The notes: generated by a model from the letters alone, not told the origin. A stretch of 64,000 bases of DNA from an uncultured Clostridia bacterium (GCA_947383095.1 CANDBZ010000001.1:1671-65670); one strand, 5' to 3'; positions 39,279 through 63,700 are shown, counted from the first letter of the stretch. A program made the numbers and translations.

Positions 39279-39303
39279 AAGCTTTAAATCAGCCGAAAAT
39301 GCG

Positions 39304-39623: not shown

Positions 39624-39674
39624 GTCCTGCGAAATCTATTTTTATATTTAATCGTTTTTTATGATTTTGCATAC

Positions 39675-39708: not shown

Positions 39709-39717
39709 CGATTTACA

Positions 39718-42700
39718 TCAACCGTTCAACGTAAACGTCCACACTCCGGATTCTCTCTGGAACTGCGGCTTTGTCTGACCGGGCGCAACGACGATCACGT
39801 CTGTAGACTGCGGCGTATCCGTCGTCACTACACTACCGTTTCTCAACACGGTATACGTCGTCGCGGCGGTAGTGGTCAACACGTTGCCGCCCGCATCCAC
39901 GACCGTACCGACCGCAGCGCACAAACGGAACTCGACCTTTCTTGCCCCGAACGACGGCAACGCTACTCTTGCAGAGGTTGACGTGAGCATGATCGGGTAT
40001 GACGTAATCTGCGTATTCTTATTGCTTGCCGAATACACGTACACCGTGCCGTACCACACTATCTTGAGAGTATGCGTTTTGTTGTTGCTGTCGGTATAGC
40101 TATAGGTCGTCGGCAAAGTGTTGTCGCTGTCGCGCGGGCTTGTTATATCGATAGAAGTTACGTTGACGGGATCGGCGACCTTGAGCCTGACCGTGACGCG
40201 CTGTTGCCCTCTGATCTGTATCGTCGCTGTCTTTTTGTCTATGCCGCTGTTCCTGATCCCCGAGCTGGAAACCGTCCACTTCGTGCCGGCGGGCATAGAT
40301 ACGGACGAATATCTGAAGAGCTTGGATGTAACTATCGTAGCCTCATTCGCATAAGTCACCGTCACTTTGCCGTCCTTCCTTGCGAACGTAGGAGCGAACT
40401 CACGGAACGACACGTTGTAAGAGCTGGGTAGCGTAAGAGTCTTGCCGTTGTTGGGATCGACTGTGAACTCTTTATCATCTGCGCCTTCGGATCTCTCGCC
40501 CGTTTTGTTATCGACTCCGGTCGTCGCAACGCCGTCCTTATCGACATAAGTGGACAGCGACGCGGGAGAACCGGACGGAGTCGACATATAGTGGATGAAC
40601 TTTCTGCTGACCGCAAACGGCAAATCGAACTCCTGCACGTTGCCGTCTTTGCCCGTGAGCAAAGCCGTGACGTAAACTATGCCTCCCTCGTATGACGGTC
40701 TGTATTTGCTGAAGCTCCACTTCAGCACACCGCCGTAAGCCGTTGACGTTGTATTGGACGGGGTCTTGTCCGCGACATAATAGGTTATCGTCGTATTTGT
40801 CTTCGTCTGCTCGCCGATATTAACACCGCTTGTGATAAACGTGCTGCCCTTAACGGAAACGCGAAGCATATCGGGCACCGTCGGCAACGAATAGTTGTAT
40901 GCGTCGATAAGCTCTGCGTTGTCAAAGGTTGAGCTGTACGCGTCGCGATAACCTTTCTGTTGGCTCAAGGTCTTGCGCGGCGTCTCTTTGGTCGTATCCG
41001 CCGCAAGACCTTGCACGGAACGGTTTGCCACACGCACGGTCACCTTGAGGCGCTGCACGCCTATTTCGTTGTAGTTGTTGCCTCCGATCACGCGTTCGTG
41101 ATCGTAAATACCGTCCGCATTGATATACGCATAGGCGACGAAGTCTCCGCCCGCATAGGTGACGTTCACGCTCGTGAAGTCCCACTGCACGGGTACTGTT
41201 ATAGTTTCCGTCGAATTCGCCGCGGTTAACTTGACGCTTGTCGGGAAATTCTTATATGAGCCTATCTCGTCGTACGTCAACTGAACGTATTTGTCGTTCT
41301 CGAGCTTATACTCCGCTTTGACGTACTTGCCGCTGTCGAGCAACGTATATCTCTCGCCGCCGTACAAAGGACGCTGTGCGTTGGACAGTTTGACATATTC
41401 TCTGTTTGTAACGTCGTATCTGTAGTCGGCAATCTCATACTTGCCGTCCGCGAGCAGCGCATAGCGTTCGCCGGGATAATTGTTCGCCGTGATATTCCTT
41501 TCAAACGGACTCGCTGCAAACGGGTCTATGGTGAATATGCCCAGCTCCGCAATGTATCCGACGCCGCTGACCGCGCCCGCAGGCATGAGTCCGCTAAACG
41601 TGGAGGTTGCAGCCTTGCCGTCGTTGATATGGACGGTCACGTTCATATCCAACGAGCACTTGTTTCCGTCCACAAGGCTGGAGACCTTGGCCTTCGCGGT
41701 GGTATTGCCGCCCTTATAGCCGTATCTCGTTTCGCTCAAATCCCACTCTGCAGACAGATTTTGAGTCGTCACGTAGATGAAGATATACAAATCGCTGCTA
41801 TCGTCGCTTGCGCGGTAGTGTCCGTCCTTGTATATCACCTCTCCGTCGTACTTGGAGTAGGAACGGCTTGACTTGGCGTACTTATAGAACGCAACCGTGC
41901 TGACGTCGCCCTCCGCAAACGCGCCGCCGTACACCTGATAAACTGCGTGATGTCTCTCCCAATTGGCGTCGTACGTCGTAGTTTCGCCCACAGCTCTGCC
42001 GTTGTTCCACCAATCCTCGGCGCTTATAAACTGTCCGCCGACGTAGTATGTGATAAAGCTGTCGTAGTTGTTTGTGTTGAACGCGCTGTTATTGCGGTTG
42101 CTCTCGTAGGGAGAGAACACATACTTGTAGTCGCCGACCGACATATCATTGTAAGCCACGTCGCTGTTGTTCACGGAAAGCGCGGATGCGCGCAACGTAA
42201 ACGTGATCTCAAACGCGTCCATGACCTCGAAGCTGCCCTCGTGGGACGGGTCGCCGCTCCAGATATGAGCCTTGACCTGCTTGCTGAACGAAGCCGCGTT
42301 CGCCGCCAACTCGTCAAAGGAAGGCACGCCGTCGTAGGTGATATAGTACACGCCGGTGTCTCCGTTTGTGAACGTGATGCGTATTTTAGCGGGCAATCCC
42401 TTCTCGCCGACATACGAATAACGGTTGTAGAACACTATTTCTTCCGGCAAACCGGTGCCGTTATTCTTTGTTATCTCGATATATCTGCCGTCGTTGCGAT
42501 TGCCGTGGCTGTCTACGCCGACAACCGTCCTTGTAACGCGACTTGCGTTGCTACGGTCGACGTAAAGCTCCGTGACGTTGCTGCGGAAGACAAATTCGGA
42601 CGTTTTGAGCGTACGCTCGAGGACCGTTACGGGCAGGTTAAATCTCTGCGTGGCGAGGCTCAAGCGCTCTTCGCTCGGGCAGGTCCAACCGTCGTCGCCG

Positions 42701-45700
42701 GTCGTCTTTCTCTTGTACGCTTCATATTCTTCCACCTTGACGAACGCGGGATTGTCGATACCGTCGTCCGTGATGTCCTTGCGCACGTACGCGCCATTAA
42801 TGTTGTAAACAGGCACCATAGAAGTCGCCATATAGTTGAGATCGCTCCTGCCAGACGCAAAGACTTTGTTGAGAGACGACCAATCGAAGTATGCGACGAA
42901 CTCGGTCTTTTCAACGCCCTCGTCCGCGCGCGTCTTAACGGTAAGCGCCTCCGGCAAATAGCTCGGATCGGAATGCAGGAATGTGTCGAGCACAAGCGAA
43001 CGGTAGCCGTAATCGGCGACATAGTAGATCGTCCTGTCGACAATGTAAACGGTGACCTCGGTATGCTCTTCCATGACGTTCGCGCCGCCGGGATAGGTGA
43101 ACGTGACGTTTATAGTATAGCTATAGCCGAAGTACTTGGAGATATTGGCGTAGAAGTCATCGTCGTTTGCAAGCGCTTTATCGACTTGCGCGAGCGAATA
43201 AGTCGCCTTGACGTCCGTGACGTAGTCGTTGCCGTCGCTGCCGACAACGTTTACGCTTGCCGCCGCGCCGGAAGCGAACAGCGTGCTTTCGACTCCGTAC
43301 GGGTCGAGCAGATACGCGCTTCCGTTTGCCAGACCGCTTATCTTCGCGCCGTCCACCTTGACGTTGACTTCAACCGTGCTGACAAGATGCTCGCTCGTTA
43401 CGGTGAGCGTCATGACTCCGTCAAAGCCCGCGTTGGTATACGTATCGCTCCAGGCGAGCGCCACGTCTATGCTCTTGCCGCCGACACGGAGCACGCTGTT
43501 TCTCGGCAGACCCTTGTAGAAGTTGTTCGCCGTGAGGTGCATGCTCAAGCCGTCTTTCGCGTTACCGTCAAAGCCCTCGAGCGTATAATCGTTTGTTATC
43601 TCGAACGCCTGCGTGCGTTTGATGCTTACTATCGCGCCGTTAGCGCTCACCAAAACGGTGTACGTTCTTTCAAATCTGCCCGCGGCGATTTCCTCTGCCG
43701 TCGGCATATCCTTGCTTTCCCAACGCACGGGCACGTCGATCGCGCTGTCGCCGTTTGCATATTCCACCGTAGCGGTCGATGCGAACGTAAATTCGTCAAA
43801 CGCGTCGTAAACCGTCTGCCCGCCGTTGTTGAGCGTGATGTTGACCACCTCGTCGTCGGCGTTCACAAGATAAATTCTCGCCTTAAACGTACCGTCCACG
43901 GGATAGCGAAGCGTTGTGCCGTCGAAGAAGCTGTATTCTCTTTCGACATACTTGTTGCCGTCCTCGTCGGTCATGATCTCTTGAGAGGCGGGAGAATTGT
44001 AATCCGTCCAGGTCATGCTCGCTCTCACGGGATCTTTGCCCTCTTTTGTTGTAAACGTCCCGAAGTCGGGCAGTATCCACGCCTTGTGCACGTCGTAATC
44101 GAACGTGAGTATATTGTCGCCGTAGCCGCCGACGCTGCCTTGCATGTCGGTGAGCGTGGTGTTTTCAAATACGCCGTCGCCCGCAAAGCTGTAATCGGGG
44201 ATATTGACCTCGACACGGATATTGCTGTTGCCTATGATGCCGTGCAGATACACGGAGTTGACGCCGAAGATATTCGCGTTTGCAAGCTCGACCGCGGGGT
44301 CGGTATCCCAGGATTGAATGTATGCGATATAGGAGTCTCCTCTCTCGCCGGGGGTGAGCTTGACGTATGTTCCCGTCGCGCCGACAAGCTTATAATCGCC
44401 GCTCGCGTCGTTGGGCGTAGCCTGTTGCATATAGCGGTCGCCCGTGAAGCTCGAAAGCTCGTTTTGCGGTATTGCGACGTATTCGCCGTTTTCGTCGAGC
44501 TTAAATTTGCCGTCGTCGCTCTTGACGTACTCCACGTCGAAGCGTCTGCCAATAAACGTGCCTCTTGCGAGGTTGACGAGCACCGCGGTGCCGCGGAACG
44601 GATCGTTCCAATATGCCTCGCCCTCGTTGCCTGTGCCGAAGTACGCGTCTCTCGAGGCGGCAAAGCTTATCGGGTCAATGCCGTACGCCACTGCCGTCGC
44701 GCCTTCGCCGACGATGTGGGTCTGACCGTATACCGTGCCGGTGTAATAGGACGGGTCAAAAATCTTGCCGCTTGCGATAAGCGCCTTCTTCTCGTCCTCC
44801 GTCATAGAGTAGATATCCTTACCGGCCTCCGCGTCGTAGAAGAAGTTGACGGACACGATCTCCTGTCTTTCGACGGTGAGCTTGAGCGCTATCGTCTGCA
44901 TGACGTATTTCGCGTTGCCGAATTCATCCACTCCGTCGGGCACAAGTCCGATCTTATTGCCGTCCTTGCCGCCGTCGGTGACGTAAGCCTCGACCTTGGC
45001 GTAGATAGTGCCGCCGCCGTAGATATTGTCAATGCGCGCGCTTTCCTCCATACCTTGGTTGGAATAGTATCTTACGGTCGACCAATCGGGATACATTGCG
45101 TGAGTGATACCGCCGTTGTTGAACTTGATATTAAGGCTCTCGTACGCCTCGCCCTCGAACCAGACGGGATTGAATGTATCCTCGTGCGCGACCGTGAGGT
45201 CGTATTGATCGGCTTTGAGCGACGTTACGTTGATGCGCACGTACTGCTGCTGATAGCCGCTGAATTGAGTGCCTATCGTGATGCGCGCATACAGCGGATA
45301 CAGCACGTTGGAGTAACCGTTGTAGTTTATCGCGTTCTTTGAAACGGGATACGCGGTATTGTCGTACGCGCCCGCATAGTCGCCGTTGACGTAGATGAAC
45401 GGAGCCTCGACCTTAAGCATATCGCTGCCGACAGTGAGAGTCCTTTGCTCGGTCTTGCCGCTGACGGCGGCGACGTTTATCACGATATCCGTTCCGTTTG
45501 AAACGAGCGTATCGCTGTTGAGCTCAACCGCCGAATACGGGTCGAAGCTGAACTCCGTCGCCATGGACTCGAACTTATAAGAGGACACCACGATCGTGAC
45601 GGGCACCGCTTGCGCGACGTAGCCCGCGTCGGCATGCAAGCTGTCGGTATCGCCGACGAAGCCGTATTTGCTCTTCTGATCGTCGCCTATCTTTATTTCC

Positions 45701-48700
45701 GTCGACTTTTTGCTGTCTGCGGTGATTACCTTAAACGTGTCGCCGCCGACATAAGCGGTCACTGTAGCCTTGATACCCTCGAAGTAGTTTATCGTCTTCT
45801 TGCCGTCCTTGACGGTCGTGAGCTCGTCTATCTTCTTTTGCAGCTCCGTAAGATCCCACTTGACCTGATAGCCGCTGAATGCGGAGCCGTTGCCCGCCCA
45901 TGTGCCGTTCAAGGTGTTGAAGCCGTTGAGGTAGGAGGTCAGATCGAAGGACGCGCTTGTGAGATCGAGAGGATTGATCGTGAGACGGGACTCGTAAGAA
46001 CCGTCCTTATTGCGCGTCGAGGTGAGATCGAGCGTGGTGCTTCCCTTTCTGATAGCCGTAACCGTGCCGATCTTATAATCCGCGACGTTGACGTTCAAAG
46101 TGCCCTTCGCCTCTGCGGACAAGCCCCATTGATAGCTGAAGCCTACCTTGAGGGTCTTGCCGCTCCAATCGTAGGAGCATGCCTCGACGTCCCAATTTAT
46201 CACGCCGATGGGGAAGTTGGCCTTGCTTGCCGTCGAAGTCACGCTCGGCATGAGGTAGCGGTCAATCACATAATAGTTCTTATTTGTCTTCCTGTCGTTG
46301 AAGATGACATAGCCCTCGCTGTCCACGGAATAGTCGCCCGTGAAGGGATTGGTGTAGTTTTCCGCCTTCATCAAGCCCACGTTGTACGCCGGGAAGAGCA
46401 TATACGTGCCGCCGTCGTCGTTGAGGACGTTCACGGTTTGCAGCTTATAGCGATTGCCTGCCTGCGCTGCCAACTGCTCTGCCGAAAGACCTGAAATAGA
46501 CCTATACGCAGGATTGACCGTCGACGTAGACGAGGCATAATAGTCGCCCTCTCCGTCCTTGACGTATTCCTGCTTGGTGCCCAACTGCGTGAGATTGAGG
46601 TTGGTAAGCACTCTCTTGTTGCCGGAAACCGTGCTTGTGTTTTGCATAAACACCGCATATTGCAGCTTGCCTTCCTCGTCATGCTTTGCCGTGCCGAATA
46701 CGCGCTTTGTGCTGTCGCCGTTGAACTTCATCTGCACAAGGTCGGGCAGCTGCACGCGATAGGAACCGCTGTTGTTCTTCTCGCGGATGTCTATGCCGAT
46801 AGTCTTCGCGGTATAGCTTGATGTGCCGTTGCCCGTGCCCGTTCTGTCGAACGCCTTGACGTCGAGCACGCCGTTTTCGTCCCTGTTGATTGCGTAAGTG
46901 TCGGACAGATATACCGGTATCGCATATACCACGGAGTTGAGCGCATAGCCGTACACGTATCCCGCAAGCCTGTCCTTATTGAGCGCTGCTGCCGTGAGGT
47001 CCACGGAGGACGCGTCCCAGATGATATACGTGCCGGGCGCGACGTTGTAGTCAGTCGCGGCGTAGCTGACGTTGCCGTTGCCGAACCTGACGTTTGCCAT
47101 CTGCGGGAAGTACGTCGGATCCGTGAAGTATTTGTCGGTGAGATATATTGTCGAGCCGTCCTTCGCGCCGCCCTGCATCGTGCCCCTACGGGTCGCGGGG
47201 TCGGTGATGTTGATACGCGTCGGAGGCGCTACGCTGTCTGCCAGCGCGGTCGCCGTATCGGAATCGTCAAAGGTGAGCAACGGTGATTTTTCCGAGGTGC
47301 TGACAGTGCTGTACGGCGTAATGCGCAGCATGAAGAAATCCCATGCGGACGACGTCAAATCATTGTTTGCAACCGTTTCAAGCGTGTTGCGCGTGCCTGT
47401 GGGCTTGTACCCGAGCTTCTCGGTGCCTATCTTGCCGGGGCCCGCATTATACGTCATCGACGTGCCGTCGCCGTTCTTCCTGCCGTTGACCATCAGCTCT
47501 ATCGCCTGTATGCCGGGATTCATCGTGTAGGTCGAATCCAAGCCGTAGTTGCTCGGCGACGGGTTGAGGTCGATGTAGATATTGAGCGTCGGGTCGATTG
47601 TACCGCTTGAGAATGGCAGCGGCAATATGCTGCCGATCAGCTTGGACAGGTTCTGGACCGTATCGCCCGCTATTGACAATAATAAATCCACAGTACTACC
47701 TGGGACGGGCAAAAGCCCGCTCTTCAGAAGACCGACGACCAACGTATAAGGAATGCTGCGCATATAAGGCTCTATCATGCACGCCTTGTCCCACGTCGAC
47801 GCGCCGTCCTTGCGCATTGTCTCCAAAGAACTCGTGATAGAAGCATAATTTGGCGCGACGGTCAATGATTTGGAAGTGCCCGTAGAGGTCGTGTATTTGA
47901 CCGTGCGATTGCCCATCGTCACGGTATTGTCGCCCTCTGTCGGCTTTGCATATGTGGCTTTGGGATTGTTCTCCATATCCACAAAATAATTGTCCTTAAT
48001 TCCCAAAGAATCGAGCAAGCCGAGCACAATGCAGTCCACCATGAGAATAAGCTCGTTGTATGCGTCGGGGTCAAGCGTTATCTTTGCGGAAATGAGTCCC
48101 GCGCCCGTACGGCCGCTCATGCTGGAGGAGGTCATGCCCGCGTAATAGGGCTGATAGCCTGATTTGGTAAACAGGTTGAGCTCCACCTTCTTGATAAGTC
48201 CTTCAAGGTTCGCGCTGTACGAATATGAAGAGCTTGTATCCGTTTCGGTTGTCGGAGCCTTATGGTTGTAATCGTACTTGTCGCCGTAAGTGTACTCATT
48301 GTTGTCGCCGTCCGTGGGACCCGCAAGCTTAAGCGGGAACGTGCCCTTTATGAAATCGTTCAGATCGTCGAAGTCAAGATACTGCTTGATAGCGCCCAAC
48401 TGATCGATATTGTTAAGGAAAGAGCCGCCCACCGAGATATTGCGCAGGAACACCTTGTTGCCGCCGACGACGATCCCGAGGCCCGGAGTCCCGTTGGGGC
48501 TGTTGTAATCGGGTCTTTGCGCGCGCAGATCAAGGAAGAGCTGATATGCCTGTCCTTTCTTATCGGCGGAGTTGGCATAGTCATACGACTTGACAAGCGG
48601 CAGCGTGACCGTCGCGGCTTTGTGCGTGGTCATTGACTTGAGACCAGTGAATACGTTTCTGCTCGCATAAACCGCATTCCACAAATAGCTCTGTATCTCT

Positions 48701-51700
48701 ATATTGAGGTGCGGGTTGATATTGTCCAGCAGGTTTTGCACAAGGGACATCATGCCCGCGGTGTTGGATATGGTCAGTCCCGCGTATCCGCCCGCGTTTA
48801 TCTCGTCCATGACGGTGGTAGCGTCAAAGAAACCCTTGCCTACAGCCAACTCTATGGGATTGATGGATATCGTCATCGACGTGCCCACGTTGTCGAGAAG
48901 CGCGCCTATAGCGATCCTGTCTATGCCTTTTGCGCCGAACTCGAGGCCGAGGTCGATGCTCTGGATATCGGGCAATTCAAACGGAAGATCCACGCCGGCA
49001 AGCAACGTGTTGATAAGGCCCATATTGAACGACGTGCCTATCCTGCCGTTGCTCAAGTTGATCTCGAGGGACAGATCGGTCTGCTCGTTTGCGGATGCGT
49101 CGGCTGCCGCGTCTTTCGCGCCGTCGCCGGACGCCGCGGAAGCCTCTGCGGAGGTGTTTGCCTCCTCATAAGGTCTCGCGCCGAGCAAGCCCGCGATACC
49201 CTGCACCTTGAGCTTGCCGAGTCCGAGTCCGCTCAAGTCGAGATATATCGCGTCGGAATAGATATTGCCGTTCGTGCCCAACTCGTATCTTCCCGTCGTC
49301 CTGTTGTAAACCAACTTGGAGCTGCCGAGATAATACGCCTTGAGAATATCCTTGTTCAAGGGCTCGCCGGCGCTCAACGTGATCGCCAGATCGCTGTGGA
49401 GTATGCCGCCAATGCCGTACAGCATGACCGCGCCCAGATTTACGTTGCCCTGTATGTCAAGATTGAGCACTACGCCGTTGGGATCCGTGCCCTCGCCGAA
49501 GACAAGGCTTATTGGCGACAGCACAAAGTAGTGCGTCGCAAGATCTTCTCTGTCGGTCGGCTTATACTTCTGATCTTTGTCGTCCTTATCGTAGTAGAAC
49601 CACTTGCCCTTGTTTGCCTCGAGCTCCTTCTTCTTGTCATCGCTGTTTGTGGAGAACTTCCGGAAGTTGCCGAATATCTCCGTGCCGTTGAGCAAGGTGC
49701 CCAAAAGCGTATTGGTAATCCAGCCGGACACGCTCTTGTTATACTTCTCGTCTGCGGACGTGAGACCCGCCGAGTTTATCTTCACCTTCATGCCGAGGTG
49801 CAGACCTATCGTGGGCAGGTTGAGCAGATCGAGTATGTTCACGTCCTCGCCGCTTATGAGCGTGCCGATATTGAGGCTGCCGATTTCGGTATAAGCAGTC
49901 TCGTCGCCGCGCTTCGTCTTCATCGTCGCGACGCCGCCTTTCACGTCCTTTGAAACATTGGGCATAGGCAGATCGAGGCACATATACAGCGCGTTGTCAA
50001 ACTTCAGATTGAGGCTTATCGTCGTCTTGTTTTGATTGTCTGTGGAGAAACTGAACAGTATATCGCCGATATCGGGCAATAGATCCTGCGTAGTATCCAT
50101 GCCGCGCACCTGCATTATCTTCTTATAAATGACGTTGACAAGCTCTGTGTTTATCTGCAGCAATATCTTGCGCGGATTGAACATGAGGATAAAGTACTCC
50201 CAATCCTTCTTGAGAGAGTCGAGAGCCGCGATCTCGTTCTTGCCCGCGGTCACGGCTTCCGCCGCAGGTTCGGCCGCGCTGTCGCCGCCCACCTTGTCGA
50301 GCAAGCCGCCGAGCACGTCCTTAAGCAAGCCGTTGAGACCGAGGTTTTTGAGCTTGATCTTCGCCGTGTTGCCCAAAATACCGCTCAAGTCGACGTACAG
50401 ATTGTCCATCATCACGTCCTTGCCCGAGCTGTCCTTATCCATCTCGCGAATGAGATAAATGCCCAGCAACGTCTTTTGCGGATTGCCTTGGAAAGCGTAT
50501 TTGACAAGCTGTATGGACGCGTTGACGCCGTATGTGGCAAAGTCGATCGCCGCCATCAGATCCAGCTTGAGGAACGCGCTGCTGTTGTTGCCCAGCTCGC
50601 CGTCGATATTGAGGAGCAGCTTCGTCTTGAGACTGCCGCCGTCGGAATTGCCGTTGACAAGACCTATGATCAAGTCAAGCACCTTGGACAAATCTATCGA
50701 ATTGCCGTCGTCCTTGCTTCCGCTGCCGTACAGCCACACGTTGACGCTCATCGACAGCATTGCCTTGAGGTCCTTTACCTGCACGTATTCGTCAAACGTC
50801 TTTTCGCCGCCTTCCGTCTTGGAAGTGCCCATCGTTGCGAGCTTGTTGAGAGAGAAGGGCTTGTTGACCGCAACGTACAGGTCGTGCAGACTTGCCGATA
50901 TCTTGAAGTCGCCCAGACGTACGTACGCGCCCGTGCTGCCCTCCGCAGGATCGAAGCTTGGATCTTTAGTATCAAAGTCCGCGGGCATATCGTACGTCGC
51001 GCCCTTCCATGCGGAATACGCATAGACCTTGAGCGCATATTCGTCCGTGGACAAAAGCACGTACGTGTTGGCGTCGATATGGTCGGCGTCATATTCCTCG
51101 CCCTTGTGAACTTCAGGGTCGAATTTCGTGTGCGAGCCGTCCTCGTTCTCAACAAATCTGTCGCCCGTCCAATTCGCGCCCGTAACGCCGTTGTCGAGAT
51201 ACTTGCCGTTTTCGCCGTATTTCTCGTTGTATTCCTTGACGGAGATATAACGTCCGTCCACCTTGCCGTTGTCGCCGGCCTTGAAGCCGAGATTGACGTC
51301 GATCGAAGGCGCGCTGCCGGAGAAGTTTATCGTGATGCCGCTCGTCGTGCTGTCGTCGGAAACGAACATCTTGGGCAGGAAGTCGCGTATGTTCTCGAGC
51401 GCGGAGCTGTCCGAATCCGCAAACATCTCAACCAAAGAAGCAAGCAGATTTTCGTTGAGCCCCAAAATCAGATAATCTCTTGTGAACAGCAAGCGGCCGA
51501 TGAGCACGTCAAGCACGCTCCAGATATTCTCAGGCAGTATGCCGGAGTTTATTTCATCGTCGACTACCGCCGCCGCGCCCGCGTCCGTGCCGTCGCCGAA
51601 GAGCAACGACAGATCCAAGCCGTCTATCATGCCATAGGAGAAGAAATCGCCCAGATTCACGATGTCGCCTATTGCCTTCGTGTCGAGATAGGCATACAGT

Positions 51701-54700
51701 CTGTGAACGTTCTGCTCGTCCTTCTTCACTTCCAGCCACAGCTTCGCTTTGGCGGTCATGGGTTTACCGTCATCCTTCACGTGCAACGTAGAAGTATACT
51801 CGAGCTCCAGATAGATCTGCGCGCCGTCGAGCACGTCGAGCAAGCCGACGTTCTTGTCGCCTGCGATGAGCTTCACTGCGTTTTGCATAGGCAGATACGC
51901 CTTAAGCGCGCCGCCGAGAGATATCTCGCCGTCGTATTCCGCGTCGTTCATGAGCGAAGCGATGAGGAAGTACATATACTCGCTGATATCCGCACCGAGG
52001 AAGCTTGTCAGTTGATACGTGAAGTTTATCAGGTCCTTCGCCTTTATGGAAAGGTCGATGTCGATGCCCAGCTCCACATATTTCAAGCCGCCGAGCATGC
52101 TCGTCATATCCAATTTCGCGCCCGAAAGCAGGTCGTTGAGGTCTATAGACAGAGCCTCCGTATAACGGCTGAAATTGCCGTCCGCCTTAAACGCCTCGAC
52201 TTCCTTGCCGTACTTGTCGGCCTCCGCCCTGTCGGTATAACCGTCGCCGTTGTCGTCTATGGGCAGGAACGCGACGAGCAATTGCAATTCCTCGTTCTTC
52301 GGGTCTTTTATCTCCTCATCTGTCGCTTTCCTGTACTGCAACGTGCCTTCGCTTGTGTCCTTGATGCACACAACGAGCTTGTCCTTGTTCGCGGCGTCGT
52401 TCTTTTCGGCGTCGGTCGCCTTTCTGTATTGCAGCTTGCCCTCGCCGGTATATCCGTCAAGCAGCTGCTTGCTTACGGCGACGTAGTTTGAATTCTTATT
52501 GACCGCAAAGAGCTTGCCCGTGAAGTTTGCAAACGCTTCGCTGTCGCAAATTTCTCTGTACACGGACGAATGCAATCTCGTCTCCACCTGGTTGATAGGC
52601 ACGTGGCGTCCGTTTTCGTTGAGCGCATACAGGATCCCGAGCTTATCCGCGTTCGTATTGTATCTGTCGTCGTGGACGGAGCCGAACGCATATCTGTTTT
52701 CGTCAAGCAGCTTGCTCATCGTCTCGGGTGCCTTTGAATAGCGTTGCGGCGCGCCCTCGAACGGCGCGAACCTGCGTCCGCTGTAGTTTGCGTCCGTTAT
52801 AGCGACGATCATTCCGTCGTCGTTCAGCATAAACTCGCCGTCTTCATCCTCGCGGTATTCCACCTCGTCCGCGTCCTTATAGAGCTTGACGAAGTTGGCG
52901 GACTTAAAATCCTTGCCGTAGCTGCCCTTCTCGTCGTAATAGAAGTTGGCGTGATAGAAGATATCGTTGCGGTCGGTGAGCACCTTATTCATATCCGACT
53001 CCACGCCGAATACTATGGAAGACGAGCCCTCGCCGCCGTTGAGCCCCTGTATCGCAAGGCCTGCGTCTATAATGGGAGTCTCGCCGTCCTCGCTGAACAG
53101 CATCGCGCCCAAAGCGAGACTGTACGGGTTCAAATCCGCCTTGACGTAGATCTTTGCGTTGGGCAGCATTTCGCCGATGTTCTCCATATTGGGCACAACG
53201 TTTTGCAACACCGCGCCGAGGAAGCCCATCGTCATGTTGACCGCTATCGCGTTTGTAAATATGTTGAGATACAGCGTAGTGGCATTGGGGTCTTGCCCGT
53301 TCGCATACTTGTCGCCATCTACGCTCTCGTCTCCGCCTTCGTTATCGCCGTCCGCGGCGGCAGCCGCTTCGACGCTCGCGTTCGCGTCTTTGTTTATCAA
53401 GCCGTTGAGCACGTCTTCAACGGAATATCTGCTCAAATCCACGTAGATTTTCGCGTCCTTGCCGAGCAACCATTGCAAATCGACATAAAGACCCGCTTTG
53501 CCCGTATCTTCGTCGCGGTCGTAATACAACCCTACGATGTGCGTCAGCGAGCCGTCTCCCTGTTGATTCCACGCGTCGATAGCGACGTCGAGGTCGTGCA
53601 CAGTGAGACCGAATTCCGGATAGACCGACAGCTCGAAGGTCAAGTCGATACGGATCGTGAAGTAAACGGTAAGCACGTTGCCTTCCTGCACCTGTATCAT
53701 CGCGCCCATGTTGCCGAGCAAACCGCTCAACACTTCGTTGACGGGCTCTTTCACGCCGTTGTAATTGTCGTCGCCGAGCTTGGAATTCGCCCATACGTAC
53801 AGCTTATTCTCTTTCTTGAGCGCGTCCGCGTCGTCGTTTGCGCCGAGCTGCACGTATTCGCCTTGATATCTCTTGAACAGTATTCCGTCCAAAACATTAG
53901 CAGGCACGTCGTTGCCGCCGTTCTCGGGATGCAGATTATTGTACAGTCCCTTATACGTATCGTACGGGAAGTAGATCTTGCCCGAGCGCACGTAGAAGTT
54001 GCCGTTGAGCGTAAACGACAGATAATATAGCTCGTTTATAGATACATAATCCTCATAAGGATAATTCGGATATTTCGTCTTGTCGCCGAAGTTCGGCTTC
54101 ACGATATCGCTCTGTTGTATGATGCGTATGGAATAATCGTCCGGACCGAACTTATCCGCTTCGTCGGGGTCGATGATCATCCACTTACCCGTACCGTTTG
54201 CGACGTTCTTATAGGCGTACCTTCTGTATATGTATTGACGCTGTATCTTCACATACGGACCGTCTTTTTCTATTGCCACATAGTATTCCTTTCCGCCGTT
54301 TGCGATTTCCGCGAGGAAGTCGGGGAATTGATCCGCCGTCGTTGCGGCAGGCACATATCCTCTTTCGCCGTCCAAAATCATAAGCGTCTCGAGGTCGATC
54401 GGATAATACTCGTTAAGATACTCGTAATAACGCGGGCTCTCGAAATATGCCTGCGTAGAGAACGAGCTGTTGCGGTAATAGTCGGATATCCACGACACAA
54501 GGCCGTCGCTCTCCTTATCCTCGCTGGTAAACGAATATTCGTTTATCTGATGATAACGCGCGCTGACGGGGATGCTGGTCACGCCGTAGTCCGCCGCCTC
54601 GCTGCCCTTCACGTATTTAAACTCTACCGCATCGAACACGGGGAAGTTGATATCGAGAGACACCTCGTAATTCCAAAGATACAGATCAAGTGAAATGAAC

Positions 54701-57700
54701 GGATAACGGGTATCAAGCTTTTCGACGCAATACAGATTTTCCATGCTGGCGCGCGTATACTTGCGCTCTTGGTCGATCTGAACGTCATCATCCTCAAACG
54801 CCTCATCCTTGACGATTGTCGCTATCCTGTAGAGCACGGGAAGATCTATGCCGTAAACGCGCTTCGCGTCCGCATTGGTCTGCGCCTGTCTGCGCTGCAG
54901 CTCGTTGGCTTCGCTATACAGCACGAAGCTGTCCGTCAAGTTGCCTTGTCCGTCGAGAAGTCTTATATAGACGGGCACCGATTTGACGTTGTAATAGAAC
55001 GCCTTGCCCTCCGCAACTTTTTCGTCATAGAGCTTCTTCTCGTTCGCGCTCATCTGCGCCGTCAACTCGAAGGCGCCGTCCTCCGCGACGTAATACGAGC
55101 CGTTTGCGTCCGGCGTGACCTCGAAGCGGTACGGAGAAGCAGCCATGGTCTTGACGACCTCTTGTTGCTTCTTGATACGCTGCTCGAGCGTGACCTTGCC
55201 GTCGGTGACGTCGTCCATCGTCGGAATTCTGTCGACGATATCTTTTACGTTCGTATACGTATGCTTCGTCATGTCCGTAAATAGCGTAAGACTCGGTTTG
55301 TTGGCAAATTCCGCCTCGAATTGGATCGCGTCCTCGCCCATCACAAGCTCGAGTATCTTGTTGATATAATTGGGATTGACAAGCGCCTGCACGTATCTGG
55401 AGGTTATGCTGAAGCCGTACAGGAACGTCCTTATGTATCCTAGCAGGCTTTCATCCTTTATCAGCGGGAATATGTCGTCTTCGGCAGAATTCGCGTCGTC
55501 GGCAGCAAACATCGCTTCCGTCTCCTCGGAACCGATAATGCCGGAGAGCAATCCGCGCATAGTGGCGCTGTCGACGGATATGCTCGGCATGTTGAAATAG
55601 CTCAAGTCGATATAAATGCCGCCGCCCACGCGCTTAAACTCGCCGTAGGGATTGGGATAGCAATAGCTGGAGTCGTAAGAGTATCTTTCGCCCTTGTATT
55701 GCGTGCCCGTGATAGTCTTATAAAGTCCGTCCTTATCGCGGAAGTACGCGCCGTATTCCGTCTCGAAATAATGGTCGTATCTGTCGTCGGGATGGACGTA
55801 TTTTTCGTTAAGCTCGGTCTTTTCCGCATCCTTGAATTGAGTCTTTTCTTCTTCGGTCAACAGCTCGAACGTGCCGCTCAACATATAAATTCCCAGCAAA
55901 TCATGGAAATCGCTGTCGTTACCGCCCTTGGTCTGCAAAACTATCGAGAGGTTGAAGAAGCTAACCAGATCGGACAGCAGCTCGGACATATCGATGTTAT
56001 CCTTGTTTTCGATGATCTTGGCCAACAGCTCGAGAGTATCCCACAAAGACATCTCTCCGAAGAAGATATCGTCGTCGTCCGCGTATTTGACAAGCTGCGT
56101 GCGCGCATAATTGACAAGCGCCATGCTCTGCAGATCCATGTTTATGACGGCGCGGATCTGACGGTTTACGTCGCCGCCGTCATCCGCCTGCGAAATTATC
56201 TTTATAAGGTCTTCGGACTGCATCGACGGTATAAACGCGGCGATGATCTCGCTCAAGTCTATGTCGTTGTTCTCGCCCGTCTTGAAACTTGTGGTTATAT
56301 CGATGACCTCCGTCAGCTTTATGCGGTCAAGGTCGCCGAAGTTGGTGTACTGCGCAAGGTCTTCGCCGCCGAGCGAATAGTTTTTGGAATTTGTGAATTG
56401 CAAATCCATATCGCGTATGCCAAGCGTGAGCCCGAGGTTGAGGTCGTACTTTCCGCCGTCGCCGACAAAGCCGTTATTTGCCACCGCGCCCGCCTTAAAC
56501 AAGTAGATAACGTCTCCCGTTTGTATCGGATATATGGCGGAACCCATGTTTTCGCTGCCGCCGCCAGCGGGATTGTCAAGCATTTCGCGCAGATAGAACG
56601 TGCCCTTTTTGCCAACGTTCGGGTCAAAGAAAACCCTGTATTTGACGTACAGCTCGGTCTCGTCAAACTGCTCGTCGGGTCTTGCCACGCGGAAGTACGT
56701 GCCGTCCTCGCCGAGCACGTAATAACCGCGTTGAGTGGACTTGGTCATATTGTCGACCTGCACGCTCTGTCCCTGTCTTCTGAAGACAAAGTATCTGTTG
56801 TTGCTGTTGACGTCAAGCAAGCGGTTTCTTACGTGCTCCTCCGGAGTACTGTCGCGGGTATCCGTGACGGTCACGGGATTTGTATATCTGCCGCCGTCGA
56901 GACCGAGCCCGACCTTCGCCTCGAGGTCCAGGCCGTCGGAGGTATTGAGCTTGATTTGCAAATTGCCGTTTATCTCATCGTAGAACAGGTCCTTGATATC
57001 GAAGCCGAGCAAGCTTTCGGGGATATATTCCAACACCGTCTTGAACAGCTTGTCTCCCAACGCTATGGTAAACAAATCCTTGTTGAACAACAACGAGAGC
57101 GCAAGGTTCTTGTTGCTGAAATCCGCGTCGCCTATCGCTCCGGATACGCCGTCGGCAACGCTGCCGTCCGCAGCGCTTCCCGTAGCCGCCATAGCGTCCG
57201 TTGCCACGTCGGTTCTCCTGTTGTCGCCGCCCGCGACGAACACATCCGCCAGATCCGCGGGATCTTTGGGAAGTATCGCGTCTATGATATCCTTCACGTG
57301 CACGTCGTCTATGCGCATTCTCGGGATATTGAACATATCAAACAGGTCGATAAACACCGACGAGTTAACGTAGTAAATTCCCGCCCACTTGACGTCGTAT
57401 CCGCTTTCCGTCACAGAGTACAGCTCAAGCTTAAGCTCGGACGTCGAGAAGTCGCCTATGTCAAGCAACAGACCTACGTCAAGCCTGAAGTGCGCGGAGG
57501 ATTTGCCGTTTGACGTCGACGGAAGCTCTACCTTCACGCCCGCCACGTTGCCGAGTATGCCGCTTATGATCTCGCCGAAGTCGATCGTTCCTTCCGTCAT
57601 GCTGAAGTCAAGCTCGACGGAGAATCCGACGTTAATGATTGTATCGTAAAGCGGATTGCACTCCATATCGTCAAACTTGGCTTTGGTCTCTTCCGGCAAA

Positions 57701-60700
57701 TCGCTGCGATACTGTACAAGTATCGTCTTGCCGTTTTCGTCCTTGCTCTCGATGTTGTGCACCTTTTTGTCGTTGATGCAATCGGGCAACAGCTCGATGC
57801 CTGCGCCAAGGTCAAGGTCGAGTCTGCCCAACCTCAAGCCCATGCTCAAGCAGCCTGCGGTGAGGTCCAAGCCTATCATAAACTCTTCAAGGTTGCCGTA
57901 GTTGTTTACCGTGCGGTAATACTTGCCCTCGGGGTCCTTGACCCAGCCGTAAAGACGGGATTTGAGACCCGTAACGAGAATGTAATTGCCGTTGTAATTG
58001 ACGTATCTGCGATCGCCCTCCTCGTTTACGAAATAATCGGAGGTCTCGTCGCCCGTTTCCGAAGTATACAAATTGTACACGCGCAATGAGACGGGTGTGT
58101 CATAACCGTCGAGCTGCGCATAGTACACGTTGTTGCCGGAAATATCCTTTGCTTCCGCAACGCGACTTATCAAAGCGAATTCGACGCCGTTGTAAATATA
58201 GGTCTTGCCGTCCTCGTATTTGTCCGCAACGATTTGATTTCCCTCGTCGTCAAGCTTATATATCGTAGTATAGCTCGCTCTGAAATACTGCGGCTTGCCG
58301 TCCGCGCCGGTCGCCACGTAATACTTGTCAAGCTCAACGTCGACATAGGTGTTTGCATCCTCATAGAAGCTGTATTTCTCGTCCGCGTACTTGGAATCCG
58401 GCTTTTCTTCGTCGGTCGCAAGTCTGTCGATAAGTATATACGCGTCGTCGACCTTCACATAGGTCGCGCCCGCCGTATATTCGTCGACCTTCGTATACTC
58501 GCTGTCCGCGCCCTTTTCAAATATATCGGTCGTCTTTGCTCTGAACAGCTTCTGTTCTTCGCCTATGGTCGCGACATAATATACGTCTTTCTTTGTCTTT
58601 TCCCATTCCTCTCTTTCCGCGTCGTCTTTGATCTTGGATATTGGCGCATAGTCGACATTTCCGTATTCAAAGCCGAGCGTGAGCTGCAATACGTCGAACA
58701 CGTCCTCGATAGAGCCGAGGTCCGGGAACATCGTCGCAAACACAAACGCTATAAGAGAACGGGTTATTTGGATCTGGAACGCTTCGTCCGAATACACGAG
58801 CGCGGCGATAGCTGCCCGCGTCGACTGCTCGAGCGCTTGAGTATCGTCGTCCGCCGCGGACATAGCTTCTTTGCCGATTATGCCGCCGATATTGCCTATG
58901 ATATCCTTGACGGTATCCACAACGTCGTCGAGACGGGAATATGTTTCCGCGGTCCTGACGATTTCCGTCGCGTCGAAATAGAGCGAACCGCCGCTCAAAT
59001 ACAAGCCGCCCAAAACATGCAAATTGCCGTTTGAATATCTTGCAAAGTGACCGTCTTCGCCAACTTTCACAAATTCTATTGCGATCTCGAGATCCTTCAA
59101 ATCGCTGTTTGCAAGCGCGTCGCCTATGCTGCCGCCCGCAAGCAAGCCTCTCAAATCCAATTTCGCGAGATCGAGGTTTACAGCTACGTTAATGCCCACG
59201 CCGCCGTTAAACTCCGACTGCGCCTGCAACGCTATGATCATATCCCCGAACAGATTGCTGATAAGACCGCCCGCGTTGTAAGTTTCGATGCTGGAGCTGT
59301 TGAAATACACCAAACCGCCGACGCTGATATAAACGTTCTGGTCGGAATATTGCGTCACGCCTTTCTTTGCGAGGAAGGAGATCTTTTCGATCGGTACGTT
59401 GACGGTTGCGCCGTTGACGGTTTCCGTGACCGCAGTGCGCTTTTGCGTATAGCGCGGCGTGCCCGCCTCTACAGCGCCCTCGATAGCCACATAAACGTCG
59501 TTTTCACTGTCATAGACATAGTTGCCCTTAACGTCGTCTCTGGTATAGTCGAGATAATACGCGACCTCGTCAAGCGCGTCGTCGTTGCCCTCGGACTTTC
59601 TATAAGCCTTGGTGATATATCTGCGCGCATATGTTTTTTGTTTTCCGATATCCTCGCCTTCGTTTATCGCGCGGAATGCGCCGCCAACCTGAATATAACC
59701 GCCCTTCGCGTCCTCGATAAACGTATAATACACGGTGTTGGCAACCACCGCGTCCGTAGCGACGGACACATAGCTGTCGCCGTAGAAGCCGTTGTATATT
59801 TCAAGGATGTTCGTGATATAATCCGCAATGCTTATGAAGTCAAGTCTATCGGCGTCCTCGAGCAGGCTGGGAGAATTGTCAAGGCTGACGAGATCGATAT
59901 CGGCAGTCAAGCCAAGCGTGATGTCAAACGTGAAATTCTTGTCTCCGCTCGGGTCTTTCTTATTGGCAAGAGCCGCAAGAAGCTCGAGGGTCATCATGCT
60001 TTCAAACTTCTCGCCGTACTGTGCAAATCTGTCGTCGGACGGACGCAGGAACAAGCCTGAATTTTCGTCCAAAACCGTGACTTCGGTATCGGGAATGAAG
60101 CCGAAGAGCAAGGATACCAGATCCTTAATCATATTGGACTTGAAGAACAGGCCGAGATAGTCCAATCTGTTGAAATCGGGATCTACGTCCCAAGGCGTGC
60201 CTATAACGACAAGACCTTTGACGACCGAGTTGAGGAAGTCTACAAAGCTTGCCTTCTCTGCCGCGGGAGTGGCTTCCGCCTCGCCGCTTGCGGTCATCAC
60301 GCCTATTTTTGCAAGCAGATCCATGAGATCCATGCTCAATTTGGGACCGCCGACTCCGAGAGTGTCGAGATAGATATCGCCGTCGACAAGATACACGTTG
60401 ATCTTCTTCGTGCTGTCCGCGCCGTCTTCATACGTGAAATCTATCGTGAGCGCAACCTCCAAGGCGCTCAAAATCGTCTTGGTGTCGAGCTTGATGTTAT
60501 TCAGATCTATGTCGGAAAAATCCGCAAGTCCCAGCTTCTCCAAATCCAGACGCGCCTTTATATCGAGCATAAATCCGTCGTTGACAGCGTCGTCAAGCAT
60601 GAAGTTGAGTCCGAGATGTTGCAGCATTTCGGCAAGACTTATCTTTTGGCTTGTGTCAAAGTTGAGATCCTTATCCTCTTTTGTAATGCGGATGATGGGC

Positions 60701-63700
60701 AAGAGGATATCCTTGACGGCGTTCTGCACCGCGTCCATGCCGAGGATCGCGTTAAGCGTTTCGTCAAACGCAAATCCGTCGCGCACAAAGTGACCGTTGG
60801 GGTCGCGCACAAATCTGCCGTCGCTCGCGTTGAGACGGTATCTGCTGCCGTTGTAGGCCTCGAGGCGTTGCTCGTCCTCTATATAGAGATATGTCGCGCT
60901 CGTCTCATAATCGATGATAAGACTCAAGCCGACTTCTATCACGCGCAATTCGTCTCTGCGCTGGAAGTGGTCTTTATATTGAGGCATGCCTTGATGCAAT
61001 TCCTCGTCATATTCGACGTATTTGCCCGTAGCCTCGTCAAACACGTACACTCTGTCCGCCTTGTCGCCCGCGGCGATCAGATCTTTTTTGCTTATAGCTT
61101 CGTCGACGGTAGCGGAAATTTGTCTGTAAACGTCGTTATCCGTGCCCGTCGCAACCGCGGCGTCGCTCAATTTGACGCCGAGAGACAGCAGCTTGCTGTC
61201 GACGTTGACCGCCAAGCCCAACGCGGGACTGATCACGAAATCTATCGAAGCGGACAGACCGAGGTCAAATTTTTCAAGAATACTGCCTATATTTCTATCG
61301 AAATCAAGCGCATACAAGGTAGTTTCTTCTACGTCGACCGCCGCGACGCGCACCTTGACGTAGTTGTCGCCAACCGCCATATACGCTTCTTCCACGCCTT
61401 CGAGACTATTAAGCGCGGTTGCGTTGACGCTTGCTTTGCGATATTGCTTGACAAACGCGCCCGCTACGTCTTTTACAAACTCGCCGTCGTCCGTCTTCGT
61501 ATATCTCTCCGTATATGCGTCGGCAAACGCGTCCTCCGTGTCGATCTCAACGTAAACGTCTCCGCCGATTATTGCCGCGATGAGCCCGACAAGTACGTTT
61601 TGTGTGACCAGAACGCTCAATCTGCCGTCTGCGAGGCCGAGGAGAATATTCATTTGATCCTCCGCGGACAATTGCGCCGCGCCGTCCGTCGCCGCCGCCA
61701 TTGCTTCCGCGCTTGCATTGCTGTTGACCTTGCCCAGCAATCCCGCGACCTGCTTGCAAATAAGCTCCGCAATATTTGTGCCTTCTATATAGAACGGCTG
61801 CTCCGAAAGCCCTCCTAAATCTATATAAATATTAGGACCGCTTATATATATAGCAATAATATTATTATCAAGACCGTGTTCCTCGTCCTTGACTGCAAGC
61901 TCGAGAATTATCTTCGCGCTTGTCGGGTCGTTGACGGTGAGGTTCGCGCCGATCTTGAGAGAAAGCGGATATGTGATATTCTGCTTGAAATCGATATTCA
62001 TCTTGAAGCCGAGGTTTGCGACGATAAGGTCGAGATAATCCTCGAGACGGACGACCTCGTCCTGCTTCTTGATATTGATATCCACTCCCAGATTGGCGTT
62101 GAGCGAGATATTGTCGAAGTTGTCGAGTCCCGTATAATCCGCTTTGTTGAAATAATCGGGCACGACGTCTTCCTTCGTCCCCAATCCGAGACGGATATCG
62201 GAAACTTCGAGACCGAGCTTGATCGGATCGATTTTTAGTTGAAGCTTCGCGTTATATTTCCAAGCGAAAGCGAAATAGCTCTCGTCGCTGTTAAGCTTGA
62301 CAAACTCGTCAGGATCAACGTCCATGCCCTCGATAAGCATATTGAGAAGCATAGAAACAAGCTCCTCGGCAAAGTTCACCTTAATACCCGTGCCGTCGAA
62401 GGTAATGCTGCGCACGAATTTGCTTATCGTGCCGAACATCTCCTCGAGCACGCCGCCGGATTGCTCCGCCGATGCCGAAGCGTCGTTATTTCCGCCGCCT
62501 CCGAAGGAGGAAAGGTCGAGATTGGATACTGCTATGTGGAATTTATCCTTCAAATCGACATACGCCGTCGTCTTGCCCGTATCCTGATCGCTTATGGCGC
62601 GCAACGCCAACAGCAACGCGCTCGCGCGGTCCGTCGCGTTCATCGAGTCGATCGCCTCTATAGCGCCGGAGTAAAGCTCTACGGCTATATCGGAATGGCT
62701 CAATATGTAGTTTATGCTAAACATTTCCGTCGGCAGGTAGAGGTCGACGCCATTGTAATCATCGACATTGTCCGCGGTGATCACCACTTTTGCGTAATTA
62801 TCGCCTACCTTGACGTATGCCGCGCCTTTTTCGATACCGTCGACCTTGCTCAAAGCAATGCCTCCGCCTATGTATTGCTTGTTGTACAGATCGCCCTTAT
62901 AGGCGTTCTCTTTGCCGTTTACTATATCGTCGATCTCGGCTTGTGAAAGCTGTATGTATTTTGTGCCTTCGAGCCTGTAAATCTCGGCAAATTTGGTTAT
63001 ATCGGATTTGTCTACGGGTATAAATACCGCGTTCTGAATAAAGTCGATAGGAACGTTCGGATTGAGTCTCAACTTCAGAGCGATGCGGAAGCCGATATTC
63101 GCGCCCGCGGCTTGCGGTACGTTCAATTCCAACAACATGGATTGCAAGAAGTTGTTCATCGCCTTGTTGTCGCCGTTGAGGAAGGTCGATATCCAACGTC
63201 CGAGATCCCATTTCTCCGTGCCCGATTCCGCGCCGAGCGTAATAGTGCCCTTAACTTCGGCAAAAACGGACGGCAAAACAATATCGCCGTATTCGTTGAA
63301 CAGGGGCACTTCGGTATACAAGCCGTTGTCCGTAGCGGTCAGATAACTGCCCAAAGGCAAAGCGTCCTGTCCTTCGCGTCTGACCATTATTTCGTCGAGG
63401 CGCGAGCCTCCCGCCTTTATGCTTATATCCTTCGCATATACGGTCGCGCCGACCATTTCCTGATTTTCGGTATCCTTGACAAGCGCGTTGACGGTAAACA
63501 CTCTGCCGTCTCTCGCTTCGAGATTGGCCCATGCCACGTCGACCCATGCCGTCAGATCGCCCAGGTCTATGCCCGTCAGTTCAAATACCGCTTCCACAAG
63601 ACCTTTTATCACTCTTATCTGGAAATCCGTAGACGTGAGCGAAGCAATGAGCGAAAGCGCGAGCGCTTTCTTTGCGGTATCGTCCATCTCGTCGACGTCG

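Follow-up and report, generated by a model that had tools for sequence, protein, structure and literature searches.

We analysed a window of 64,000 nucleotides of DNA from an uncultured Clostridia bacterium (GCA_947383095.1, CANDBZ010000001.1:1671-65670), a piece of bacterial chromosome whose genes down the minus strand include rpoB, rpoC, metK, secA, prfB, fusA, tuf, nusG and rplA/rplJ, and in which no tRNAs were found. A giant open reading frame (ORF; 39718..63993, minus strand, 8,091 codons plus stop) stays open through the right-hand end of the window, with its N-terminus lying beyond that end. Residue n of this ORF lies at window position 63993-3(n-1), and the segment 39721-47316 is therefore amino acids (aa) 5560-8091, the C-terminal third of the ORF, hereafter called the tail. 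Alignment offsets to two relatives, the 7,881-aa family member P0030 and the locus L002, suggest that about 500-1,100 aa of the giant protein are missing from the window, and the full-length protein is probably about 8,600-9,200 aa long. An earlier reading, made from the sequence alone (the sequence-only reading), had taken the tail for an array of immunoglobulin (Ig)-like domains of the bacterial family Big_4, recognisable by an LPxxVxV...VxW signature, and it is this array that we describe here.

Two AlphaFold2 models, made with family alignments, cover aa 5596-6795 and aa 6796-7995, with a mean predicted local distance difference test score (pLDDT) of 68.6 for the former and of 77.2 for the latter (898 of 1,200 residues at 70 or above). 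Together they contain 141 strands as against 23 short helices, and are thus almost all-beta. The LPxxVxV and VxVxW segments of every motif instance lie on consecutive strands, most likely forming a beta hairpin in the predicted fold; in the Big_4-like copies these strands are followed by WD..s..(x)nGG/GxY. The limits of D1-D22 (about 21 domains) and of three low-confidence inserts, all on the minus strand, were set from secondary structure and confidence breaks. As modelled, the tail folds as a chain of about 20 (+/- 2) small beta-sandwich domains. Foldseek searches of the PDB at E<=1e-3 returned 94 and 109 matches for the two models (best E 3e-8 and 1.5e-7), the top ones being extracellular cadherin (EC) arrays of protocadherin/CELSR, SbsB, Sap, EA1, SbsC and the GhpA grappling-hook base, along with alpha-2-macroglobulins, the multidomain BbgIII, titin, DSCAM and Sidekick. 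The template modelling (TM) scores were 0.2 or lower, as is expected for flexible multidomain chains, and the matches therefore point to a tandem beta-sandwich array and to no specific family.

When the whole ORF was compared with Pfam by hmmscan, Big_4 (PF07532; gathering score 22.1 bits) was the sole family at threshold, with 23 bits at aa 7578-7615 (window 41149-41262). The match lies in D18 (aa 7557-7665, 40999..41325), a bona fide Big_4 domain, which scored 22.4 bits in a 300-aa tile and 31.4 bits (E 1.4e-7) as a family consensus. The D10 consensus reached 17.2 bits, under the threshold, and the consensus sequences of the other domains gave no Big_4 match in Pfam at E<=10. No further Big_x family appeared at E<=10 in the 300-aa tiles, where only NPCBM_assoc, Invasin_D3 and RibLong matched, all below threshold. 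When the protein, entire or in 200-aa tiles, was compared with itself by BLAST, one pair of inserts, 27% identical, was essentially the sole internal repeat, and profile methods were consequently needed; profiles of the family alignment and of the internal copies found nothing in the PDB at E<=10. Comparison of the domains with each other by hhalign, using profiles of 51 sequences, linked D18 to D19 (93.5%), D1 (93.4%), D10 (92.2%), D9 (76.8%), D15 (75.2%), D13 (60.4%) and D4 (40.7%), D17 to D18 (96.0%), D19 (93.9%), D11 (76.5%) and D3 (70.7%), and D9 to D10 (97.7%). A separate window scan agreed with these relations.

The relation was also found in the reciprocal direction. A profile of nine internal copies from the window, from which D18 was deliberately excluded, was searched against 1.84 billion representative proteins and gave 25 matches at E<=1e-3: 16 fragments of the family, three artefacts and six unrelated proteins. 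The top three library matches (P0022, P0033 and P0034) were rejected as tandem-repeat artefacts, as they also "match" several unrelated Pfam families and have no single significant stretch. Each of the six unrelated proteins has 2-10 Pfam Big_4 copies (63-319 bits), partnered by surface-layer homology (SLH) domains, BspA-type leucine-rich repeats (LRR) or DUF5648, and the matched stretches coincide with the Big_4 copies; the matches are significant only by the summing of weak copies, the best single copy scoring 14-24 bits. A hidden Markov model (HMM) built from the 48 Big_4 copies of these outside proteins gave 13.2 bits at D10, 12.6 at D18, 6.0 at D15, 3.1 at D1 and 2.9 at D22 of the giant protein, and in the N-terminal 5,560 aa only two matches, both below 0 bits. 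The five tail matches of at least 2.5 bits compare with a mean of 0.04 and a maximum of 1 in 300 shuffles, for which the top score was 6.5 bits. At 10 bits or more, this external HMM recognised D18 in 30 of 43 orthologues, D10 in 17, D9 in 15, D15 in 4, D1 in 3, and D4 and D13 in 2 each, and in no orthologue did it so recognise D5-D8, D12, D14, D16, the hairpin insert, D19 or D20. D3, D11, D17 and D19 are tied to Big_4 solely through the internal hhalign comparisons. On this profile evidence, D1, D3, D4, D9, D10, D11, D13, D15, D17, D18 and D19 (10-11 domains) are recognised as mutually related, strongly diverged copies of Big_4. The array is heterogeneous, because only about half of the approximately 21 domains are of Big_4 type; the remainder, about 10 domains, are other beta modules.

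These results bear out most of the sequence-only reading. Its nine motif strings are all found at the residues assigned to them, one of them off by one, and the motif core [VILFY]x[VILAFY]xW[DESTNY] is commoner than chance would give: the C-terminal 2,531 aa contain it 6 times, a count that 0 of 500 shuffles (mean 0.7) attained, and the N-terminal 5,560 aa lack it. Both the W and the P of LP are retained at each site of the 51-sequence alignment (50 orthologues, overall identity 23-45%). The sole Pfam family at threshold falls on a listed instance (7583-7606), no unrelated family reached threshold, the remaining instances are tied to Big_4 by the profile-profile comparison, the reciprocal search and the external HMM, and beta-sandwich arrays were predicted with good confidence. 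Other points need amendment. The tail had been called rich in T, S, N and V, which is correct for T (9.8 vs 5.8%), S (8.0 vs 6.3%) and V (8.7 vs 6.5%), but N is flat (6.3 vs 6.1%); Y, too, is commoner in the last 2,531 aa, and L drops there to about half (5.5%, as against 10.5% in the N-terminal 5,560 aa). Recurrence of the motif every 90-250 aa breaks down between aa 5943 and 6736, a stretch of about 800 aa consisting mostly of beta domains without the motif. Four copies had been overlooked, near aa 6042 (D4), 6641 (D9), 7413 (D17) and 7757 (D19). Among the listed instances, 7583 (D18) is confirmed as Big_4, 6736 (D10) and 5628 (D1) are well supported, 7200 (D15) is supported, and 7013 (D13), 6829 (D11) and 5927 (D3) are moderately supported, the last two via D17; 5749 (D2) and 7960 (D22) are linked only weakly to the other copies.

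The domains can be followed along the minus strand from D1 (aa 5596-5700, 46894..47208), a Big_4-like domain (FPQxAxV...IVWDASSVD...GYVYGY) that is the best-conserved block of the tail region and scores at least 5 bits with the external HMM in 8 orthologues. D2 (aa 5705-5783, 46645..46881) is a beta domain with a strongly conserved LPDLV strand and only weakly related to Big_4 (an hhalign value of 46% to D15, across 16 columns). It is followed by a lineage-specific disordered insertion (aa 5784-5859, 46417..46644; pLDDT 29-42), the occupancy of which in the 50 orthologues averages 2 per column at aa 5791-5820 and 19 at 5821-5850. D3 (aa 5860-5973, 46075..46416; FPxGxIxWD...YxWG) is a distantly Big_4-like beta domain, and D4 (aa 5974-6060, 45814..46074), which ends in VxWD (YQVKWD), a weakly Big_4-like one with at least 5 bits in 9 orthologues. 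D5-D8 (aa 6061-6599, 44197..45813), all four of them beta or mixed domains, lack the LP...W motif, and for these the external HMM reaches 5 bits in at most one orthologue per domain and 10 in none; D8 contains a lineage-specific hairpin insert at aa 6479-6552. D9 (aa 6600-6710, 43864..44196; LPDFGTFTT...MTW) and D10 (aa 6712-6802, 43588..43860; FASTATVEY...VPVRWE) are Big_4-like, and D11 (aa 6803-6881, 43351..43587; LPRNSVLRV...VALAW) is compact, confidently modelled (pLDDT 81-90) and distantly Big_4-like, with an hhalign value of 29.6% to D18 and a sub-threshold Pfam match to Invasin_D3.

Beyond the second-class beta domain D12 (aa 6882-6985, 43039..43350), which starts with LDPY, comes D13 (aa 6987-7120, 42634..43035; LPEALTVKT...AYFDW), Big_4-like with a helix-containing loop inserted and scoring as high as 18.7 bits with the external HMM in orthologues. 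D14 (aa 7121-7190, 42424..42633) is a small beta domain with neither motif nor Big_4 signal; D15 (aa 7191-7270, 42184..42423; LPAKIRITF...YYITYD) is a Big_4-like copy in which Y replaces W, its 6.0 bits here being joined by at least 5 bits in 11 orthologues; and D16 (aa 7271-7395, 41809..42183) is mixed beta/alpha (pLDDT 73-93), its family consensus having no Pfam match. D17 (aa 7396-7470, 41584..41808; LSAEWD...YKGG) is a Big_4-like C-terminal half, separated from D18 by a lineage-specific hairpin-repeat insert of GERY...DGKYV units (aa 7471-7556, 41326..41583; pLDDT 45-73). D19 (aa 7700-7805, 40579..40896; LKWSF...YEGG) is related to D17 and D18, and D20/21 (aa 7840-7950, 40144..40476; VDPN/IDPY...LP) comprises one or more second-class beta domains with a sub-threshold RibLong match. 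The terminal domain D22 (aa 7951-8091, 39721..40143; LPTTYSY...KIVW), modelled over aa 7951-7995, has hhalign values of 10% or less to D10/D11, besides the 2.9 bits given above, and includes a conserved tip block (aa 8011-8040) that is among the better-conserved segments. The second domain class, D6 (45223-45573), D12 (43039-43350) and D20 (40144-40476), is defined by a starting strand of hydrophobic-x-hydrophobic-DPY (TFDPYS, LLDPYG and TVDPNN/IDPY). Its members are mutually related (hhalign 83.3% for D6 and D12, 78.7% for D6 and D20) and show no Big_4 signal; the DPY motif also precedes the LP strand in D19 and D20.

Units of the form G(D/E)RY..L..DGKY(V/E)..Y are found on the minus strand at 44338-44604 (aa 6464-6552), 41260-41526 (aa 7490-7578) and 52372-52509 (aa 3829-3874), that is, as inserts in the Ig-like tail and the N-terminal part alike, and similar units were seen in the N-terminal homologue P0020. 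The two tail inserts are 27% identical by BLAST (hhalign 89.7%) and are modelled with low confidence; in the 50 orthologues the occupancy of their cores averages about 10 per column at aa 6481-6540 and 9-13 at aa 7501-7560, whereas the flanks are common to the orthologues. No Pfam family matches these units.

Sequence and profile searches of 5.8 billion proteins retrieved only 19 clusters, all from metagenome-assembled genomes (MAGs) of Clostridia/Christensenellales, which are unannotated or named "Ig-like domain-containing protein" and align colinearly with the query (identity about 26-40%). In a scan of one genome per GTDB species, the tail region was present in 50 species, all of them gut-derived MAGs (human, Hadza, mouse, rabbit, chicken, roe deer, sheep); the carrier CP091723.1 is a closed chromosome of 1.647 Mb. 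Every tail domain is conserved position by position over the 50 species, and copies within one protein are too unlike for BLAST. At most loci the frame is continuous over the match and the upstream flank of about 3 kb, the longest open frame being 3,100-3,470 aa in 37 of 50. A second gene, encoding the tail as a stand-alone C-terminal protein, had at first been suggested by homologues with lengths of about 2,600-3,700 aa. This was rejected, because the split in GCA_051883595.1 is a run of Ns, the other short entries are fragments and most loci are continuous upstream. In that assembly a scaffold N gap (L001:9816-10001) divides one copy into "proteins" of 5,555 and 3,148 aa, and the L002 copy has been called as abutting or overlapping ORFs of 588, 490, 1,183, 2,047 and 1,249 aa, probably through frameshifts. 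Owing to such gene fragmentation in public assemblies and annotations, database lengths are unreliable for this family of giant proteins. Only two homologues were found with the first 1,200 aa as query, and the upstream fragment of P0002's gene (5,555 aa) was not among them. Six carrier genomes (L008, L010, L022, L033, L037 and L040) are labelled Butyrivibrio crossotus, Bacteroides sp., Phascolarctobacterium succinatutens, Anaeroplasmataceae or Acidaminococcus sp. CAG:917, and are probably mislabelled or mis-binned MAGs. Literature searches on Big_4 and on giant proteins of Christensenellales brought up nothing relevant.

In all four relatives that retain their N-terminus, the protein opens with a lipoprotein signal peptide, the last residue of which is the lipobox cysteine. 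The signal reads MKKLKYAFLFVLVLCLIGVSLVAC in P0030 and MRKLSLVLMLVLISVMLFGLVAC in L002, which is the locus of the 41%-identical N-terminal homologue P0020, and it ends in ...LLTVFAAC in P0019 and ...AAMFVAC in P0021. At the C-terminus of the giant protein there is no sortase-type motif, no membrane helix and no hydrophobic segment (maximum 19-residue Kyte-Doolittle mean in the tail, 1.38), and C-terminal anchoring by sortase or in the membrane was rejected on these grounds. From the lipoboxes of the relatives and the bare C-terminus, it follows that the anchor is most likely N-terminal and lipidic, with the Ig-like chain as the free distal end; judging from these relatives, the protein would be exported and lipid-anchored to the cytoplasmic membrane. 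An extracellular location with an N-terminal anchor, as the sequence-only reading had proposed, agrees with these data. Of the distal binding stalk that it had also proposed, the stalk of tandem beta domains stands, but binding is an inference only, because no adhesive domain or ligand was found. Pfam contained no adhesive family matching the 8,091 aa or the domain consensus sequences, and no SLH domain in the ORF, the N-termini of the relatives being lipoprotein signals and not SLH. The preceding part of the protein, aa 1-5559 (47317-63993, minus strand), has no Pfam match at E<=0.1 save one at chance level; it is rich in L and D, with recurring LLGLYY.G..LYVDA..G blocks.

Downstream, the giant gene is followed here by an IspD-like gene (38096-39229, plus strand) and by rpoB-rpoC, an IspD-like neighbour being common to only 4 loci, this window included. 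The comparison of downstream genes drew on loci L003-L052 and on positions 36000-39717 of the window. At 38 of 44 related loci a 371-aa gene lies within about 140 nucleotides downstream of the giant gene, and at 32 loci a 357-aa CxxC-rich (zinc-ribbon-like) gene comes next; the counterpart of the 371-aa gene at L001 has Pfam matches to Band_7_1 (SPFH) and a zinc-ribbon. This gene pair may resemble YdjI/YdjG of B. subtilis. Neither gene is present in the window. A GC-rich inverted repeat (39680-39702; 8 pairs, 7 of them G-C), located 16-38 nucleotides past the stop of the giant gene, is a possible terminator, with a T-run detected on the plus strand only. On that strand an open frame of 1,131 codons with a GTG start (41947-45342) lies antisense, wholly inside the giant gene, and several further long ORFs overlap it; these plus-strand ORFs are probably non-coding shadow frames.

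We consider it likely that the tail is the C-terminal part, about 2,500 residues, of one very large secreted protein conserved in gut Christensenellales/Clostridia, in which it forms the distal chain of an N-terminally lipid-anchored molecule. The tail is most likely the membrane-distal stalk and tip of a fibrillar surface protein of this kind. An N-terminal lipoprotein signal peptide would lead to export and then to a lipid anchor in the cytoplasmic membrane, which would leave the Ig-like chain as the membrane-distal end. By analogy, this chain could project from the cell surface as a semi-rigid stalk and tip, over about 80 nm if each domain spans about 4 nm, and might, like a fibrillar adhesin, attach the cell to host material or to other cells. 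Several points weigh against this interpretation. The Ig-like topology of each domain and the domain count rest on secondary structure and on whole-model Foldseek matches with low TM scores; only one of the approximately 21 domains of the giant protein itself passes the Pfam Big_4 threshold, and D2 and D22, both on the earlier list, are weakly linked; the lipid anchor is argued from relatives, the protein's own N-terminus lying outside the window; the overall geometry is unfixed, with 5,560 aa upstream in the same ORF that have no assigned fold; and neither an adhesive or catalytic domain nor a ligand has been identified. One might speculate further that the chain is more than a generic spacer. 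Gut Christensenellales with small genomes would in this view have a lineage-defining attachment organelle, lipidated at its N-terminus, and the Ig-like chain would be its working end, some 20 domains, each conserved in its own right and not interchangeable, binding a conserved partner together with the conserved tip; we regard this extension as rather unlikely. The tip block (aa 8011-8040) is more readily reconciled with a partner that is itself conserved than with a hypervariable one, and the giant gene would take up about 1.5% of the genome, since the one closed carrier genome is only 1.65 Mb. The partner, if this were true, could be another microbe (e.g. a syntrophic or host cell on which these bacteria depend) or host mucus.

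Three other explanations have to be weighed. That the LP...W pattern is a convergent, generic beta-hairpin of unrelated sandwich domains, with D18 as the only true relative of Big_4, is highly improbable: eight of the nine listed instances do lack a Pfam match even at E<=10 in 300-aa tiles, self-BLAST shows no repeats and the reciprocal library matches become significant only through summed weak copies, but the hhalign values of 60-98% span 23-66 columns and reach past the motif, all six unrelated non-artefact matches of the D18-free profile are Big_4 proteins matched at their Big_4 positions, and the external HMM finds D9 and D10 in 15-17 orthologues and never attains 10 bits at the control domains. 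Lateral packing of the beta chain into a surface coat, as an envelope scaffold or the former of a lattice like that of a surface layer (S-layer), seems quite unlikely. Foldseek ranks the S-layer proteins SbsB, Sap, EA1 and SbsC near the top, and position-specific conservation of non-identical domains is closer to S-layer proteins than to the homogenised stalks of adhesins. These matches, however, with TM scores of 0.2 or lower, are to tandem beta-sandwich chains in general, the matched S-layer chains (588-721 aa) are far shorter than a subunit of about 9,000 aa would be, and no SLH or other wall-binding domain was found, the relatives having a lipobox instead.

Big_4 is frequent in extracellular glycosidases. 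In the third explanation, the Big_4 chain would be the accessory, spacer or glycan-binding part of a giant surface protein, carbohydrate-active or otherwise enzymatic, with an unrecognised catalytic module in the N-terminal 5,500 aa. The multidomain beta-galactosidase BbgIII among the Foldseek matches and the N-terminal part devoid of any annotation would suit such an enzyme. We nevertheless find it very doubtful, as Pfam gave no catalytic family for the whole ORF at E<=0.1 and the PDB no match to sequence profiles of the C-terminal region, and the retrieved Big_4 proteins pair with SLH, BspA-type LRR or DUF5648 and not with glycosidase domains. None of these three alternatives is favoured by the data.

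A distal chain on a lipid-anchored surface protein would give a first view of the structure and topology of a very large, so far uncharacterised protein conserved in at least 50 species of uncultured gut Christensenellales/Clostridia, whose hosts are humans, mice, rabbits, chickens and ruminants. Neither giant surface proteins with terminal Ig-like arrays nor the Big_4 family is new, and a giant surface protein with an Ig-like end is to be expected rather than surprising; the unexplained part is the N-terminal region of 5,500 aa. What is new is the uncharacterised family itself, the very diverged Big_4 subtype, the polarity given by an N-terminal lipobox and the restriction to uncultured gut Christensenellales. 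Most of this strongly diverged subfamily escapes the Pfam Big_4 model, and the copies described here could seed a better one. As the probable surface-exposed, membrane-distal part of the protein, the tail is also a natural target for antibodies, binding assays and cell-sorting probes aimed at the uncultured carriers.

Among known systems, the multi-copy Big_4 surface proteins of Firmicutes share with the giant protein tandem domains, Ig-like by prediction in its case, the LPxxVxV...VxVtWD...GxYxvxG signature and, probably, secretion. Those retrieved here have 10 copies (P0041), 7 copies and DUF5648 (P0039), 4 copies and SLH (P0042), or BspA-type LRR and 2 copies (P0043). In contrast, the copies of the giant protein are far more diverged (8 of the 9 listed instances are invisible to Pfam), are interleaved with other types of beta domain, and stand at the C-terminal end of a protein of more than 8,000 aa that has, to judge by its relatives, a lipoprotein N-terminus and no SLH, LRR or sortase anchor. 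The fibrillar adhesins of Gram-positive bacteria, such as Cna of S. aureus and the Rib/Alpha C proteins (PMC8286594), are likewise long single polypeptides with a stalk of small beta-sandwich domains, and are attached to the cell surface, as the giant protein probably is. Of the features that define them, the giant protein has the elongated stalk of tandem domains (about 20 consecutive beta domains), and a Pfam search of the whole 8,091 aa gave no recognised adhesive domain. In Firmicutes adhesins the adhesive domain is usually N-terminal and the LPxTG C-terminal (PMC8286594), whereas the polarity of the giant protein would be reversed, with an N-terminal anchor (the lipobox of the relatives) and the Ig chain at the free C-terminus; its stalk domains, moreover, are non-identical and individually conserved, and about 5,500 aa of it have no recognisable domains.

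The S-layer proteins of Bacillales, SbsB, Sap and EA1 (PDB 4aq1, 6hhu and 8opr), are also chains of dissimilar beta-sandwich domains, in their case six or seven of Ig-like type, but they are 10 times smaller, SLH-anchored and lattice-forming, and in the giant protein neither sequence similarity to them nor SLH was found. The extended tandem beta-sandwich is shared, too, with the ectodomains of cadherins and protocadherins and with GhpA of Aureispira (PDB 6vg1, 8d40 and 9fly). This likeness is structural only, at 8-10% identity, and the Pfam Cadherin families gave no match at E<=10 in the tiles or the consensus sequences. GhpA is, like the protein described here, a giant bacterial surface protein, but one from a different phylum.

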